A stretch of DNA of 64,000 bases, taken from Escherichia coli. GTDB taxonomy: Bacteria; Pseudomonadota; Gammaproteobacteria; Enterobacterales; Enterobacteriaceae. A program made the position numbers and the translations under genes. Below, in pieces: positions 3,849 to 19,298 of the stretch. Numbering within the stretch: the stretch's first letter is position 1; every line of letters starts with the position of its first letter. The stretch is taken from the NCBI RefSeq assembly GCF_045037415.1, contig NZ_CP173438.1; one strand, 5' to 3'. The notes below the pieces were generated by a model. It was given only the letters and a program-made list of their open reading frames with translations. It did not search any database and was not told where the DNA came from.

Positions 3849-4544
3849 ATGTTAGAAGATCTCAAACGCCAGGTATTAGAAGCCAACCTGGCGCTGCCAA
3901 AACACAACCTGGTCACGCTCACCTGGGGCAACGTCAGCGCCGTTGATCGCGGGCGCGGCGTCTTTGTGATCAAACCTTCCGGCGTCGACTACAGCATCAT
4001 GACCGCTGACGATATGGTCGTGGTCAGCATCGAAACCGGTGAAGTGGTTGAAGGTACGAAAAAGCCCTCCTCCGACACGCCAACTCACCGGCTGCTCTAT
4101 CAGGCATTCCCGTCCATTGGCGGCATTGTGCACACACACTCGCGCCACGCCACCATCTGGGCGCAGGCGGGTCAGTCAATTCCGGCAACCGGTACCACCC
4201 ACGCCGACTATTTCTACGGTCCCATTCCCTGCACCCGCAAAATGACCGACGCAGAAATCAACGGTGAATATGAGTGGGAAACCGGTAACGTCATCGTAGA
4301 AACCTTCGAAAAACAGGGTATCGATGCAGCGCAAATGCCCGGCGTCCTGGTCCATTCTCACGGCCCATTTGCATGGGGCAAAAATGCCGAAGATGCGGTG
4401 CATAATGCCATCGTGCTGGAAGAGGTCGCTTATATGGGTATATTCTGCCGTCAGTTAGCGCCGCAGTTACCGGATATGCAGCAAACGCTGCTGGATAAAC
4501 ACTATCTGCGTAAGCATGGCGCGAAGGCATATTACGGGCAGTAA
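3849..4544 (+). CDS. araD: L-ribulose-5-phosphate 4-epimerase
   Basis: 231-aa [38 protein letters not shown]...; matches AraD. Confidence 0.97.
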
Positions 4545-4618: not shown

Positions 4619-6970
4619 GTGGCGCAGGCAGGTTTTATCTTAACCCGACACTGGCGGGACACCCCGCAAGGGACCGAAGTTTCCTTCTGGCTGGCGACGG
4701 ACAACGGGCCGTTGCAGGTTTTCCTTGCGCCGCAAGAGTCCGTGGCGTTTATTCCTGCCGATCAGGTTCCCCGCGCTCAGCATATTTTGCAGGGTGAACA
4801 AGGCTTTCGCCTGACGCCGCTGGCGTTAAAAGATTTTCACCGCCAGCCGGTGTATGGCCTTTACTGTCGCGCCCATCGCCAGTTGATGAATTACGAAAAG
4901 CGCCTGCGTGAAGGTGGCGTTACCGTCTACGAGGCCGATGTGCGCCCGCCAGAACGCTATCTGATGGAGCGATTTATCACCTCACCGGTGTGGGTCGAGG
5001 GTGATATGCGCAATGGCGCTATCGTTAATGCCCGTCTGAAACCGCATCCCGACTATCGTCCGCCGCTCAAGTGGGTTTCTATTGATATTGAAACCACCCG
5101 CCACGGTGAGCTGTACTGCATCGGCCTGGAAGGTTGCGGGCAGCGTATCGTTTATATGCTGGGGCCAGAGAATGGCGACGCCTCCGCGCTCGATTTTGAA
5201 CTGGAATACGTCGCCAGCCGCCCGCTGCTACTGGAAAAACTTAACGCCTGGTTTGCCAACTACGATCCTGATGTGATCATCGGTTGGAACGTGGTGCAGT
5301 TCGATCTGCGAATGCTGCAAAAACATGCCGAGCGTTACCGTATTCCGCTGCGGCTGGGGCGTGATAACAGTGAGCTGGAGTGGCGCGAGCACGGCTTTAA
5401 AAACGGTGTGTTTTTTGCTCAGGTTAAAGGTCGGCTAATTATCGACGGTATCGAGGCGCTGAAATCCGCGTTCTGGAATTTCTCTTCATTCTCGCTGGAA
5501 ACCGTCGCTCAGGAGTTATTAGGCGAAGGAAAATCTATCGATAACCCGTGGGATCGAATGGACGAAATTGACCGCCGTTTCGCCGAAGATAAACCTGCGC
5601 TGGCAACTTATAACCTGAAAGATTGCGAGCTGGTGACGCAGATCTTCCACAAAACTGAAATTATGCCGTTTTTGCTCGAACGGGCGACGGTGAACGGCCT
5701 GCCGGTGGATCGACACGGCGGTTCGGTGGCAGCGTTTGGTCATCTCTATTTTCCCCGTATGCATCGCGCTGGTTATGTCGCGCCTAATCTCGGCGAAGTG
5801 CCGCCGCACGCCAGCCCTGGCGGCTACGTGATGGATTCGCGACCTGGGCTTTATGATTCGGTGCTGGTGCTGGACTACAAAAGCCTGTACCCGTCGATCA
5901 TCCGCACCTTTCTGATTGATCCCGTCGGGCTGGTGGAAGGCATGGCGCAGCCTGATCCAGAGCACAGTACCGAAGGTTTTCTCGATGCGTGGTTCTCACG
6001 GGAGAAACATTGCCTGCCGGAGATTGTGACTAACATCTGGCACGGGCGCGATGAAGCCAAACGTCAGGGTAATAAGCCGCTTTCGCAGGCGCTGAAGATC
6101 ATTATGAATGCCTTTTATGGTGTGCTCGGCACCACCGCCTGCCGTTTCTTCGATCCACGCCTGGCATCGTCGATCACCATGCGTGGTCATCAGATCATGC
6201 GGCAAACCAAAACGTTGATTGAAGCGCAGGGCTATGACGTTATCTACGGCGATACCGACTCAACGTTTGTCTGGCTGAAAGGTGCACATTCGGAAGAAGA
6301 AGCAGCGAAAATCGGTCGTGCACTGGTGCAGCACGTTAACGCCTGGTGGGCGGAAACGCTGCAAAAACAACGGCTGACCAGCGCACTGGAACTGGAGTAT
6401 GAAACCCATTTCTGCCGTTTTCTGATGCCAACCATTCGCGGGGCCGATACCGGCAGCAAAAAGCGCTACGCCGGACTGATTCAGGAGGGCGACAAACAGC
6501 GGATGGTGTTTAAAGGGCTGGAAACCGTGCGCACCGACTGGACGCCACTGGCCCAGCAGTTTCAGCAGGAGCTTTACCTGCGTATCTTCCGCAACGAGCC
6601 ATATCAGGAATACGTGCGTGAAACCATCGACAAACTGATGGCGGGTGAACTGGATGCGCGGCTGGTTTACCGTAAACGCCTTCGCCGTCCGCTGAGCGAA
6701 TATCAGCGTAATGTGCCGCCTCATGTACGCGCCGCTCGCCTTGCCGATGAAGAAAACCATAAGCGCGGTCGCCCCTTGCAATATCAGAACCGCGGCACCA
6801 TTAAGTACGTATGGACCACCAACGGCCCGGAGCCGCTGGACTACCAACGTTCACCACTGGATTACGAACACTATCTGACCCGCCAGCTACAACCCGTAGC
6901 GGAGGGAATACTCCCTTTTATTGAGGATAATTTTGCTACACTTATGACCGGGCAACTTGGGCTATTTTGA
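4619..6970 (+). CDS. polB: DNA polymerase II
   Basis: 783-aa ORF, GTG start; contains polymerase motifs (YGDTDS); length matches Pol II. Confidence 0.95.
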
Positions 6971-7134: not shown

Positions 7135-10041
7135 ATGCCTTTTACACTTGGTCAACGCTGGATCAGCGATACAGAAAGCGAATTGGGACTTGGAACCGTT
7201 GTCGCGGTGGATGCGCGAACTGTCACTTTACTTTTCCCATCTACTGGTGAAAACCGTCTGTACGCACGCAGTGATTCCCCCGTGACCCGCGTGATGTTCA
7301 ACCCTGGTGATACCATTACCAGCCATGACGGCTGGCAGATGCAAGTCGAAGAAGTAAAAGAAGAAAATGGCTTGCTGACCTATATCGGTACTCGCCTTGA
7401 TACTGAAGAGTCCGGCGTGGCCCTGCGTGAAGTTTTCCTTGATAGCAAACTGGTGTTCAGCAAACCGCAGGACCGTCTGTTTGCCGGGCAGATTGACCGT
7501 ATGGACCGCTTTGCGCTGCGTTATCGCGCGCGTAAGTATTCCAGCGAACAGTTCCGTATGCCGTACAGCGGCCTGCGCGGTCAGCGTACCAGCCTGATCC
7601 CGCACCAGCTCAACATCGCTCATGATGTTGGTCGCCGCCACGCGCCGCGCGTCCTGTTGGCTGACGAAGTGGGTTTAGGGAAAACCATTGAGGCCGGGAT
7701 GATCCTGCATCAGCAACTGCTCTCTGGCGCTGCTGAACGTGTGCTGATTATCGTCCCGGAAACCTTACAGCATCAGTGGCTGGTAGAAATGCTGCGCCGT
7801 TTCAACCTGCGCTTTGCTCTGTTTGATGATGAGCGTTATGCCGAAGCTCAGCACGATGCTTACAACCCGTTCGATACCGAGCAGCTGGTGATTTGCTCGC
7901 TGGATTTTGCCCGTCGTAGCAAACAGCGTCTGGAACATCTCTGTGAAGCCGAGTGGGATCTACTGGTGGTCGATGAAGCGCATCACCTGGTGTGGAGCGA
8001 AGATGCGCCGAGCCGTGAATATCAGGCCATTGAACAACTGGCAGAGCACGTGCCGGGCGTTCTGCTGCTGACCGCAACCCCGGAACAGCTGGGGATGGAA
8101 AGCCACTTCGCCCGTCTGCGTCTGCTGGACCCGAACCGTTTCCACGATTTTGCGCAATTCGTTGAAGAGCAGAAAAATTATCGTCCGGTTGCGGACGCCG
8201 TTGCCATGCTGCTGGCGGGTAACAAACTCAGCAATGACGAACTGAACATGCTCGGTGAGATGATCGGCGAGCAGGATATCGAGCCGCTGTTGCAAGCAGC
8301 AAACAGCGACAGCGAAGATGCCCAGAGCGCCCGTCAGGAACTGGTTTCGATGCTGATGGATCGCCACGGTACCAGCCGCGTGCTGTTCCGTAACACCCGT
8401 AACGGTGTGAAAGGCTTCCCGAAACGCGAGCTGCATACTATTAAGCTGCCACTGCCGACGCAGTATCAGACCGCTATTAAAGTCTCCGGCATTATGGGCG
8501 CACGCAAAAGTGCGGAAGATCGCGCTCGCGATATGCTCTATCCGGAGCGTATTTATCAGGAATTTGAAGGCGATAACGCCACCTGGTGGAACTTCGATCC
8601 GCGCGTTGAATGGCTGATGGGCTACCTGACCAGTCATCGCTCTCAGAAAGTGCTGGTGATCTGCGCCAAAGCGGCCACTGCGCTGCAACTGGAGCAGGTA
8701 CTGCGCGAACGTGAAGGTATTCGCGCCGCAGTGTTCCACGAAGGCATGTCGATTATCGAACGTGACCGCGCTGCCGCCTGGTTTGCTGAAGAAGACACCG
8801 GTGCGCAGGTACTGCTGTGCTCGGAAATCGGTTCTGAAGGACGTAACTTCCAGTTCGCCAGCCACATGGTGATGTTTGACCTGCCATTCAACCCGGATCT
8901 GCTGGAGCAGCGTATTGGGCGTCTGGATCGTATCGGTCAGGCGCACGATATTCAGATCCATGTGCCTTATCTGGAAAAAACGGCTCAGTCGGTGCTGGTG
9001 CGCTGGTATCACGAAGGTCTGGATGCGTTCGAGCACACCTGCCCGACCGGACGCACTATTTACGATAGCGTATACAACGATCTGATTAACTATCTGGCTT
9101 CACCGGATGAGACCGAAGGCTTTGACGATCTAATCAAAAACTGCCGCGAGCAGCACGAAGCGCTGAAAGCACAACTGGAACAGGGGCGTGACCGCCTGCT
9201 GGAGATCCATTCCAACGGTGGCGAAAAAGCCCAGGCACTGGCAGAAAGCATTGAAGAGCAGGATGACGATACCAATCTGATCGCCTTCGCCATGAACCTG
9301 TTCGATATTATCGGTATCAATCAGGACGATCGCGGCGACAACATGATCGTGCTGACGCCGTCCGATCATATGCTGGTGCCGGACTTCCCTGGCCTGTCGG
9401 AAGATGGCATCACCATCACCTTCGACCGTGAAGTGGCGCTGGCGCGTGAAGATGCACAGTTTATTACCTGGGAGCATCCGCTGATCCGCAACGGTCTGGA
9501 TCTGATCCTTTCTGGCGATACCGGTAGCAGCACGATTTCACTGTTGAAAAACAAAGCGTTGCCGGTAGGTACGCTGTTGGTGGAACTGATTTATGTGGTT
9601 GAAGCCCAGGCTCCGAAGCAGTTGCAGCTCAACCGCTTCCTGCCACCGACGCCGGTACGTATGCTGCTGGATAAAAACGGCAACAACCTGGCGGCGCAGG
9701 TAGAATTTGAAACCTTTAACCGTCAGCTTAACGCGGTTAACCGTCACACCGGCAGCAAGCTGGTTAACGCGGTGCAGCAGGATGTTCACGCTATCCTTCA
9801 GCTGGGGGAAGCGCAGATCGAGAAATCTGCCCGTGCATTGATTGATGCAGCGCGTAACGAAGCCGACGAAAAACTGTCTGCCGAGCTGTCTCGTCTGGAA
9901 GCGCTGCGTGCAGTTAACCCGAACATTCGTGACGACGAACTGACCGCCATTGAGAGCAACCGTCAGCAGGTAATGGAAAGCCTGGATCAGGCAGGCTGGC
10001 GTCTGGATGCCCTGCGTTTGATCGTTGTGACGCATCAGTAA
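7135..10041 (+). CDS. rapA: RNA polymerase-associated Swi2/Snf2 ATPase RapA (HepA)
   Basis: 968-aa [25 protein letters not shown]..., helicase motifs ([13 protein letters not shown]); matches RapA. Confidence 0.97.
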
Positions 10042-11931: not shown

Positions 11932-14285
11932 ATGAAAAAACGTATCCCCACTCTCCTGGCCACCATGATTGCCACCGCCCTTTATAGTCAACAGGGACTG
12001 GCAGCCGACCTCGCCTCACAGTGCATGTTGGGCGTGCCAAGCTATGACCGTCCTCTGGTACAGGGCGATACCAATGACTTACCCGTGACTATCAATGCTG
12101 ACCACGCGAAAGGGGACTACCCGGATGACGCCGTGTTTACTGGCAGCGTGGATATCATGCAGGGTAACAGCCGTCTGCAGGCCGACGAAGTGCAGCTCCA
12201 TCAAAAGAGGCACCAGGACAACCGGAGCCGGTACGTACCGTTGATGCGCTCGGTAATGTCCATTACGACGATAACCAGGTGATCCTCAAAGGGCCGAAAG
12301 GCTGGGCGAATCTGAACACCAAAGATACCAACGTCTGGGAAGGTGATTACCAGATGGTGGGTCGCCAGGGGCGCGGTAAAGCGGACCTGATGAAACAACG
12401 TGGCGAAAACCGCTATACCATTCTGGATAACGGTAGCTTTACCTCCTGTCTGCCGGGTTCTGACACCTGGAGCGTGGTAGGTAGCGAAATTATTCATGAC
12501 CGCGAAGAACAAGTTGCGGAGATCTGGAACGCCCGCTTTAAGGTGGGTCCGGTACCGATCTTTTATAGCCCGTATTTGCAGTTGCCGGTGGGTGACAAAC
12601 GTCGCTCTGGTTTCTTGATCCCGAACGCCAAGTACACCACCACCAACTACTTTGAGTTCTACCTGCCATATTACTGGAACATCGCGCCAAATATGGATGC
12701 CACCATCACGCCGCATTATATGCATCGTCGTGGCAACATCATGTGGGAGAACGAATTCCGCTACCTCTCCCAGGCGGGCGCTGGCTTGATGGAACTGGAC
12801 TATCTGCCTTCAGATAAAGTCTATAAAGATGAACACCCGAACGATGACAGTTCACGTCGTTGGTTGTTCTACTGGAACCACTCCGGGGTCATGGATCAGG
12901 TGTGGCGTTTCAACGTCGACTACACCAAAGTCAGCGATCCTAGCTACTTCAATGACTTCGATAACAAATACGGTTCCAGTACCGACGGCTACGCAACGCA
13001 AAAATTCAGCGTTGGCTATGCGGTGCAAAACTTCAATGCCACCGTTTCAACCAAGCAGTTCCAGGTCTTCAGCGAGCAGAACACCAGTAGCTACTCGGCA
13101 GAGCCGCAGTTAGACGTTAACTACTACCAGAATGATGTTGGTCCGTTTGATACGCGTATTTACGGTCAGGCAGTGCACTTTGTTAACACCAGAGACGACA
13201 TGCCTGAAGCAACCCGTGTTCACCTGGAACCGACCATCAATCTGCCGCTCTCTAATAACTGGGGCAGCATCAATACCGAAGCGAAGTTGCTGGCAACCCA
13301 TTATCAGCAAACCAATCTTGACTGGTATAACTCCAGAAACACGACCAGGCTGGCAGAGTCCGCTAACCGTGTAATGCCGCAGTTCAAGGTAGACGGTAGA
13401 ATGGTCTTCGAGCGTGATATGGAAATGCTGGCGCCGGGCTATACCCAGACACTGGAACCACGCGCGCAGTATCTGTATGTGCCATATCGCGATCAGAGCA
13501 AAATCTATAACTACGACTCTTCGCTGCTGCAATCTGACTACTCCGGCCTGTTCCGGGACCGGACTTACGGCGGTCTTGACCGTATTGCCTCCGCTAACCA
13601 GGTGACGACCGGTGTCACATCTCGCATATATGATGATGCTGCCGTTGAACGTTTTAATATTTCCGTTGGTCAAATCTACTATTTCACGGAGTCTCGCACT
13701 GGCGATGACAACATAACATGGGAGAATGACGACAAAACGGGCTCACTGGTATGGGCAGGCGATACTTACTGGCGCATCTCCGATCGTTGGGGATTGCGTG
13801 GCGGGATTCAGTACGATACACGTCTGGATAACGTAGCGACCAGTAACTCCAGCATTGAATACCGTCGTGATGAAGACCGTCTGGTACAGCTGAATTACCG
13901 TTACGCCAGCCCGGAATATATTCAGGCTACGCTGCCTAAGTACTATTCCACTGCTGAGCAATATAAGAATGGTATTTCGCAGGTAGGTGCCGTCGCCAGC
14001 TGGCCAATTGCCGATCGTTGGTCCATTGTTGGGGCCTACTACTACGACACCAATGCGAACAAGCAAGCCGACTCTATGTTAGGTGTGCAATACAGCTCCT
14101 GCTGCTATGCGATTCGCGTCGGTTACGAGCGGAAGCTGAACGGTTGGGATAACGATAAACAACATGCGGTATATGACAACGCAATCGGCTTTAACATCGA
14201 ACTTCGCGGCCTGAGCTCCAACTACGGTCTGGGTACGCAAGAGATGCTGCGTTCGAACATTCTGCCGTATCAAAACACTTTGTGA
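11932..14285 (+). pseudogene. lptD: LPS-assembly outer-membrane protein LptD, reading frame interrupted near 12203-12210
   Basis: ORFs 11932..12282 (116 aa) and 12279..14285 (668 aa) together give the 784-aa LptD; the frame changes immediately after ...ADEVQLHQK. One extra A in the A-run (caaaag to caaaaag) restores ...[35 protein letters not shown]. Confidence 0.85.
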
Positions 14286-14337: not shown

Positions 14338-17431
<3,094 letters not shown>

Positions 17432-18666: not shown

Positions 18667-18692
18667 ATCCCGTCGAGCATAAAATCTAATGC

Positions 18693-18977
18693 TCATTTAA
18701 TCAACGTTCGGTGCGCGCTGGCATCGCAAAATTTCGTTCCCAGCGCGTTAACTGGAACAGTTGCAGTCTCATGCGTCATGAGCACATATTCTTTGCCGTC
18801 TATCAGTAAAAGGATTGGGTTAAGCCGTTCTGGTGGGCGAATACGGCTAAATCGTTCAATAGGTGTTAATGGAATAACGATACGGCGATTAATCTCACCA
18901 ATAATGTCGCTGGTAACATCAATAACAAAGGGAAACGCGGCGTTCCTGCCGCGACTGCGGTATACCGTAAATTGCAT
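18693..18977 (-). CDS. ccdB: CcdB-family toxin (DNA gyrase poison), chromosomal copy
   Basis: 94-aa ORF MQFTVYRSRGRNAAFPFVIDVTSDIIGEINRRIVIPL... resembles F-plasmid CcdB (MQFKVY...VDVQSDII...VIPL); sits 3 nt after the ccdA stop. Confidence 0.85.
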   Translation of the reverse strand: MQFTVYRSRGRNAAFPFVIDVTSDIIGEINRRIVIPLTPIERFSRIRPPERLNPILLLIDGKEYVLMTHETATVPVNALGTKFCDASAHRTLIK

Positions 18978-18979
18978 CG

Positions 18980-19213
18980 CTAGAAGCTCCGGTACTCATC
19001 AGAGAAACATCCGGTTTCATCAGCCAATTGATTTAACGCAGCGATAGCTTCTGCGTTCTCTTCACGCCAACGTGTTGCTGCATGTTTTTTAAGTTCAGCA
19101 TTGAGCGCAACCGTAAGGGTGGCGCTCATATTTAAGCCTGCATCACGAGCGCGATTGACTAACTCACGGTCGACGGTGACGGTCACACTTTGTGTGGTAC
19201 GTTTTGCAGTCAT
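18980..19213 (-). CDS. ccdA: CcdA-family antitoxin, chromosomal copy
   Basis: 77-aa ORF MTAKRTTQSVTVTVDRELVNRA...RWREENAEAIAALNQLADETGCFSDEYRSF resembles F CcdA (ITVTVD...RWKAENQEGM...F.DE.R); classic antitoxin-then-toxin order. Confidence 0.85.
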   Translation of the reverse strand: MTAKRTTQSVTVTVDRELVNRARDAGLNMSATLTVALNAELKKHAATRWREENAEAIAALNQLADETGCFSDEYRSF

Positions 19214-19298
19214 GATCTCGTGCTCCTGTACAATTTATACGTCTAGTATACACGGATATCTGCACGTATCAGTGATGCCGGAATTCTAATATACGAAA
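19214..19298 (-). promoter_or_regulatory. Putative ccd promoter / operator region
   Basis: Short palindromic elements (tgtacaatttatacgtctagtatacacgg) immediately upstream of ccdA; inferred from TA autoregulation. Confidence 0.35.

Follow-up and report, generated by a model that had tools for sequence, protein, structure and literature searches.

In the 64,000-nucleotide stretch of the Escherichia coli chromosome analysed here (RefSeq contig NZ_CP173438.1; hereafter the window), the gene for the lipopolysaccharide (LPS) assembly protein LptD (lptD, 11932..14285, plus strand, as are all features of this gene given below) lacks one of the 2,355 nt of the intact gene, and is read as two open reading frames (ORFs). 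We consider it very likely that this split is a recurrent systematic under-call of a homopolymer, and that the gene is really intact, with five A's at the affected site. The initial annotation of the window, which was made from the sequence alone, had preferred a homopolymer sequencing or assembly error, and this view is now backed by the identity of the window to the genome of strain EC958, by recurrence of the same deletion on unrelated backgrounds, by an error-prone sequence context, and by the essentiality of lptD.

The lptD reading frame is interrupted at a run of four A's

The missing base belongs to a run of four A's (A4) at 12203..12206, which is a run of five (A5) in EC958 and in 5,420 of the 5,425 RefSeq complete E. 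coli genomes that match the region. The window reads at-c-aaaa-g-ag-gcaccaggac at 12200-12219, placing c-aaaa-g at 12202-12207, and translation of 11932-12207 gives 92 codons ending in ...ADEVQLHQK, the position at which the frame had originally been proposed to break. A Dcm methylation motif, CCAGG, lies 6 nt downstream of the run (12213..12217), and is mentioned here as context only, as a possible contributor to nanopore miscalling.

ORF1 (11932..12282, 116 aa, ATG start) encodes the signal peptide and LptD residues 1-92, followed by 24 out-of-frame residues and a TGA stop. ORF2 (12279..14285, 668 aa) opens at an internal GTG (Val117) and has neither a signal peptide nor a Shine-Dalgarno sequence upstream of it (..GATAACCAG GTG). 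Both ORFs had been reported with exactly these limits, which the ORF listing reproduces. The remainder of lptD in the shifted frame (12207..14285) is unbroken, and supplies E93-L784 and the stop (692 codons plus stop). Both frames are open across 37 codons (12168..12279), the sole place where a -1 slip could rejoin lptD. The two products had also been noted to sum exactly to the 784 aa of LptD, and this arithmetic is right (116 + 668 = 784), but the sum is a coincidence that arises because the TGA of ORF1 overlaps the GTG of ORF2 (GTGA, 12279-12282). The wild-type residues in fact tile as 92 + 692, and residues 93-116 are in the correct frame in neither ORF1 nor ORF2. The GTGA overlap resembles the junction of two genes coupled in translation, but it arises by chance in the shifted frame and is not designed.

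When scored against the NCBIfam equivalog model for LptD (NF002997, curated cut-off 683 bits), the repaired 784-aa product reached 1388.5 bits over residues 1-784, covering profile positions 1-781 of 783. ORF2 alone scored 1200 bits (profile positions 117-781), and ORF1 scored 132 bits, below the cut-off. An LptD is expected as one ORF that includes a signal peptide, and in the deposited sequence the ORF with the signal peptide falls below the cut-off and the other is signal-less. With the base restored, lptD is an unremarkable member of this equivalog family. Solved LptD structures (PDB 4Q35, 4RHB and 9I9Z) align over residues 1-784, and because barrel-only crystal constructs begin near residue 200, the break at residue 92/93 is placed inside the N-terminal periplasmic domain (∼25-200). 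ORF2 has no signal peptide and no ribosome-binding site, and therefore its product could not reach the outer membrane.

Apart from one base, the window is identical to EC958

To compare the window with a close relative, we took positions 10500-76000 of the EC958 chromosome (NZ_HG941718.1) and aligned the whole 64,000-nt window to it. There were no mismatches and one gap in 64,000 nt, an A between 12206 and 12207 that is present in EC958 only. In EC958, lptD has five A's and encodes an intact 784-aa LptD (WP_000746171.1), so the earlier statement that one inserted A restores the protein holds: the alignment shows a single extra A and zero mismatches. Dozens of complete genomes of sequence type 131 (ST131), among them EC958, JJ1886, JJ1887 and ZH193, match positions 1-25000 of the window at 100.0%, with a span of 25,001 nt in each record, that is, with the same single gap. 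Neither lptD nor any other coding sequence (CDS) of EC958 that overlaps the window carries a pseudogene flag, and since the rest of the window is EC958 sequence, the claim that every other core gene in the window is intact also stands. The gene order, with divergent djlA and then lptD-surA-pdxA-rsmA-apaG-apaH, is kept as annotated in EC958.

The product of the repaired gene is thus the same as the essential LPS translocon of E. coli, LptD (Imp/OstA), in that it is identical to the EC958 protein and is encoded in the same syntenic position, and the deposited sequence differs in that its frame breaks after codon 92. Apart from the missing A, lptD of the window has 100% identity with the functional allele of EC958 and shows no further decay. 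The check for other homopolymer indels that the initial annotation had proposed, run here on the 64-kb window against EC958, found none besides the lptD A-run. The same annotation had allowed for a laboratory-passaged or suppressor-bearing isolate; this gains no support, there being no other change within 64 kb.

The same deletion recurs as singletons on unrelated backgrounds

The distribution of the deletion was examined in 5,426 RefSeq complete E. coli genomes with two queries. The first, which was 601 nt long and spanned the site, matched 5,425 of them; the best matches were at 99.8% over a 602-nt span, and no genome with the same 601-mer carried the deletion. The single genome without any match to this query may lack the region, or have it badly garbled. 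The second query was a 50-nt probe (12180-12229) that extends 23 nt to each side of the four A's, so that a 28-nt exact seed is impossible on an A5 genome. Five genomes matched this A4 probe, all at 100%: YSP8-1 (pig, China), C51 (cattle, Russia), HS-01 (human, Indonesia), 755 (CP183129; urine, Taiwan) and UID2309220007 (CM142668; urine, Thailand). The NCBI annotation pipeline PGAP marks lptD as "frameshifted" in all five. Their polB genes encode five different protein alleles, and they diverge from the window by 2.4-2.5%; none of the ST131 complete genomes in the RefSeq set shares the deletion. Together with the window there are six independent backgrounds, with every A4 occurrence a singleton. 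The A5-to-A4 deletion is no lineage marker and shows no sign of clonal inheritance.

Beyond the complete genomes, the exact 116-aa truncated product was found in a large protein collection on 303 contigs (374 index blocks) that stem from NCBI, ENA and Logan, the longest of these contigs being 5.4 Mb. Four A's were confirmed locus by locus at L003-L005, L007-L022 and L033-L037; the 116-aa product of L006 is the same, with the exact flanking string unmatched. Of ten loci picked by a different error, a 49-aa fragment of rapA, two also carry the A4 form of lptD, and in this small sample such a frequency is compatible with the 13.5% average error rate of 5-nt runs given below, or with a somewhat higher one. 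We searched the literature for published frameshifts in lptD, and for any description of this position as prone to error, and found nothing.

Most carriers of the deletion are error-rich assemblies

All 20 of the loci fetched through ORF1 or ORF2 (L003-L022) carry other indels relative to the window, from 1 to more than 100 in 8-22 kb. For indel typing, 12 of the loci from these look-ups were aligned to the window, 8 of them ST131-identical. The 8 ST131-identical loci showed 0-1 mismatches and 3-34 additional indel events in 11-22 kb, and across all 12 loci the events numbered 0.12-1.54 per kb, nearly all of them deletions. Grouped by the length of the homopolymer run, the error rate in these 12 loci was 0.6% for runs of 3 nt, 2.1% for 4 nt, 13.5% for 5 nt, 67% for 6 nt, 60% for 7 nt and 100% for 8 nt. 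The recurrent indel sites also include C-runs within CCWGG. Homopolymers and Dcm motifs are the two dominant classes of consensus error in Oxford Nanopore assemblies (Wick et al., 2019; PMC6591954), and the systematic nanopore errors that remain uncorrected are chiefly homopolymer indels, which cause frameshifts (Huang et al., 2021, 'Homopolish'; PMC8011154).

Errors of these classes are also found among the complete genomes. YSP8-1 has 2-nt deletions at three CCWGG motifs and two T5 deletions, and C51 has a CCCCCCAGG deletion in surA, at a Dcm motif; HS-01 is borderline for other errors of the same class. The 2-nt deletions in YSP8-1 (L033) fall exactly at CCAGG or CCTGG, at the equivalents of window positions 3871, 3893 and 13225, in araD and lptD. 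They are a basecalling signature of Dcm methylation that has survived into RefSeq, giving several false pseudogenes in 24 kb.

The site lies in the most under-called class of 5-nt runs

To determine whether context influences the error, A5 and T5 runs were scored in the 8 error-rich ST131-identical loci (0.3-1.5 indels per kb). The context C-AAAAA-G, to which lptD (TC-AAAAA-GAGG) belongs, was under-called in 10 of 23 observations (43%). More generally, A5 followed by G was under-called in 13 of 57 observations, versus 7 of 203 (about 3%) when A5 was followed by C or T (Fisher p = 1.8e-5). The lptD site belongs to the most under-called class of 5-nt runs. This flanking-base rule could serve to flag suspect frameshifts. 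Other A5/T5 runs in the window include 17031-17035 in rsmA and 6458-6462 in polB.

Several observations weigh against an under-call. The window is itself not error-rich: it contains 235 runs of at least 5 nt (179 of 5, 36 of 6, 14 of 7 and 6 of 8), and only the lptD A-run differs from EC958, although under a simple length-dependent error model the longer runs would be expected to go wrong first. The window has five more CAAAAAGA sites, all of them correct. Two of the RefSeq carriers, 755 and UID2309220007, are clean over ∼74 kb: apart from lptD, no CDS has a frame-breaking indel in 24 kb, and none is marked "frameshifted" in another 50 kb. Proximity to a Dcm motif also did not have a significant effect on 5-nt runs, with errors in 3 of 29 runs within 10 nt of CCWGG versus 50 of 288 elsewhere; 4-nt runs within 10 nt of CCWGG were more error-prone (7 of 66 versus 25 of 1250), as were 6-nt runs.

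Set against published nanopore homopolymer under-calls (PMC6591954, PMC8011154), the lptD deletion has the same form, a 1-nt homopolymer deletion that creates a frameshifted 'pseudogene' and recurs in independent projects, most carriers also have homopolymer and CCWGG deletions, and close relatives are intact. It differs in that the run is only 5 nt long, and in being the sole error in 64-74 kb in the window and two RefSeq genomes. Other errors of the same class are present in L003-L022, YSP8-1 and C51, and absent in the window, 755 and UID2309220007 over 64-74 kb. We infer that this base has a site-specific propensity for error, and can be wrong alone in otherwise good assemblies.

A sequence of events leading to the deposited record can be proposed. 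The isolate would be an E. coli ST131, indistinguishable from EC958 over 64 kb, with an ordinary A5 lptD, and the deposited consensus would under-call the lptD A-run by one base, an error that we place in the reads or assembly of the window itself. The context TC-AAAAA-GAGG, with CCAGG 6 nt downstream, would give rise to a recurrent, context-dependent consensus error in long-read data, the platform most likely being nanopore. At such sites most of the reads can show the wrong run length, which polishing would then leave in place, and a lone error in a clean assembly could be accounted for in this way.

lptD is scored as essential in published E. coli data

In EC958, transposon-directed insertion site sequencing found 8 inserts in the 2,303 bp of lptD, versus 94 in the 1,268 bp of surA, and lptD is scored as essential in EC958, in the Keio collection and in EcoGene (Phan et al., 2013; PMC3789825, Table S1). 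All seven Lpt proteins are essential for growth of E. coli, and the transporter is described as growth-essential; the adaptive lptD alleles reported in E. coli, G580S and others, are missense (Kaito et al., 2020; PMC7179839). Such alleles resemble the present case in being lptD changes in evolved or clinical strains, but the known viable ones are missense or in-frame, with no frameshift among them. The allele lptD4213 (imp4213) is an in-frame deletion.

A genuine lesion is disfavored because lptD is essential, ORF2 lacks a signal peptide, the A4 form is never inherited, and the gene is otherwise undecayed. The reservation of the initial annotation, that the lesion might be genuine, still holds at a low probability. 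The occurrence of A4 as singletons on distinct backgrounds and the identity of the rest of lptD to EC958 speak against gene decay to a genuine pseudogene.

Alternative explanations for the split gene

Were the deletion real, the isolate might survive by a -1 slip in which tRNA-Lys on A_AAG re-pairs with AAA while the rare codon AGG waits in the A site, and the product would be exact wild-type LptD, its level reaching no more than a few per cent of normal. We regard this as very unlikely, although the sequence has features that suit it. Loss of the base brings A_AAG (12204-12207) into frame ahead of AGG; this A_AAG is the sole Z_ZZN motif in the 37-codon stretch open in both frames (12168-12279), and a -1 slip there regenerates ...HQK-EAPGQ... 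exactly. Of the Z_ZZN tetramers, A_AAG is the one at which ribosomes of E. coli shift most readily (Sharma et al., 2014; PMC4066793). In two test proteins, 1-bp deletions were suppressed by non-programmed events at an aggregate level of 1-10% (Springstein et al., 2024; PMC10861913), and the A4 form also occurs alone in otherwise clean assemblies. The likeness to -1 frameshifting on A_AAG in these studies ends with the tetramer and the wild-type product of the slip: the lptD site lacks a heptamer and any pseudoknot or stem-loop, and it is not conserved; the expected efficiency is at background level, since tetramers without a stimulator shift at ∼0.15%, the same as background, and A_AAG attains 5.6% only with a strong pseudoknot (PMC4066793). 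Specifically, the zero frame offers no slippery heptamer (X_XXY_YYZ), the CAA codon in the P site is unable to re-pair, and the downstream 83 nt fold at -21 kcal/mol, versus a mean of -20.98 for shuffled sequences (z = -0.01). In addition, the A4 form is never inherited, its six occurrences lying on six backgrounds, most carriers are demonstrably error-rich assemblies, and lptD in EC958 tolerates almost no insertions. The more specific proposal, that a viable ST131 isolate truly carries A4, as 755 and UID2309220007 perhaps do too, as a recurrent mutational hot spot with LptD made only by non-programmed -1 slippage, is very unlikely indeed; if it were true, it would mean a natural outer membrane drastically depleted of LptD, and an essential envelope protein supplied solely through errors of translation.

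The deletion could also be real DNA without being the genotype of a viable clone: a minority or late variant, or damage inflicted while the DNA was prepared or amplified, would have won the consensus at this position. Polymerases commonly slip by one base in A-runs and the lptD deletion is isolated in the window, as this explanation would have it, but a lethal allele cannot become the majority in a growing culture, and for hundreds of independent projects to lose this one base needs a systematic process, that is, the artefact explanation; we hold it to be highly improbable. That lptD is normally made as two polypeptides, or by evolved recoding, is scarcely credible. The GTGA overlap has a superficial likeness to translational coupling, but ORF2 has no signal peptide or ribosome-binding site, the break (residue 92) falls within the N-terminal periplasmic domain, neither heptamer nor stimulator is present, and lptD is a single in-frame gene in 5,420 of the 5,425 RefSeq complete genomes that match the region. 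A programmed -1 frameshift site was considered separately and rejected, as it fails the tests of heptamer, downstream structure and conservation.

Consequences for annotation

With an under-called A-run as the preferred explanation, the biological weight of the split is small, since lptD in the isolate is almost certainly intact. The value lies in curation, because this exact base yields a false lptD pseudogene on some 300 public contigs and in a minimum of five complete genomes of RefSeq, in a gene that is essential and a drug target, and the false call can arise even in clean-looking assemblies. Pseudogene counts, inferences of gene loss, screens for resistance to LptD-directed drugs and core-genome alignments should mask or repair the base.

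Other observations in the region

Apparent artefact fragments of neighboring genes occur on comparable numbers of contigs: folA (106 aa, 232 contigs), pdxA (179 aa, 122 contigs) and rapA (49 aa, 542 public contigs). The RapA truncation is caused by a C5-to-C4 deletion in a C-run at window positions 7277-7281; in the window the run is C5 and rapA is intact. The C4 form was seen in three otherwise clean complete genomes (CP042947.1, CP026834.1 and CP027352.1; loci L028, L030 and L031), in which rapA is the only broken gene in 16 kb. It could be a second hot spot of systematic error, or a real pseudogene that is recurrent or lineage-specific; because rapA is non-essential, it is open to either reading, unlike lptD.

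In this ST131 background, though not in several other lineages, a chromosomal ccdA/ccdB toxin-antitoxin pair lies between apaH and folA (window ∼18690-19215; EC958_RS00270/RS00275 in EC958). The pair is absent at L009-L011 and in strains YSP8-1, C51, HS-01 and 755, and in strain UID2309220007 ccdB has an internal stop.

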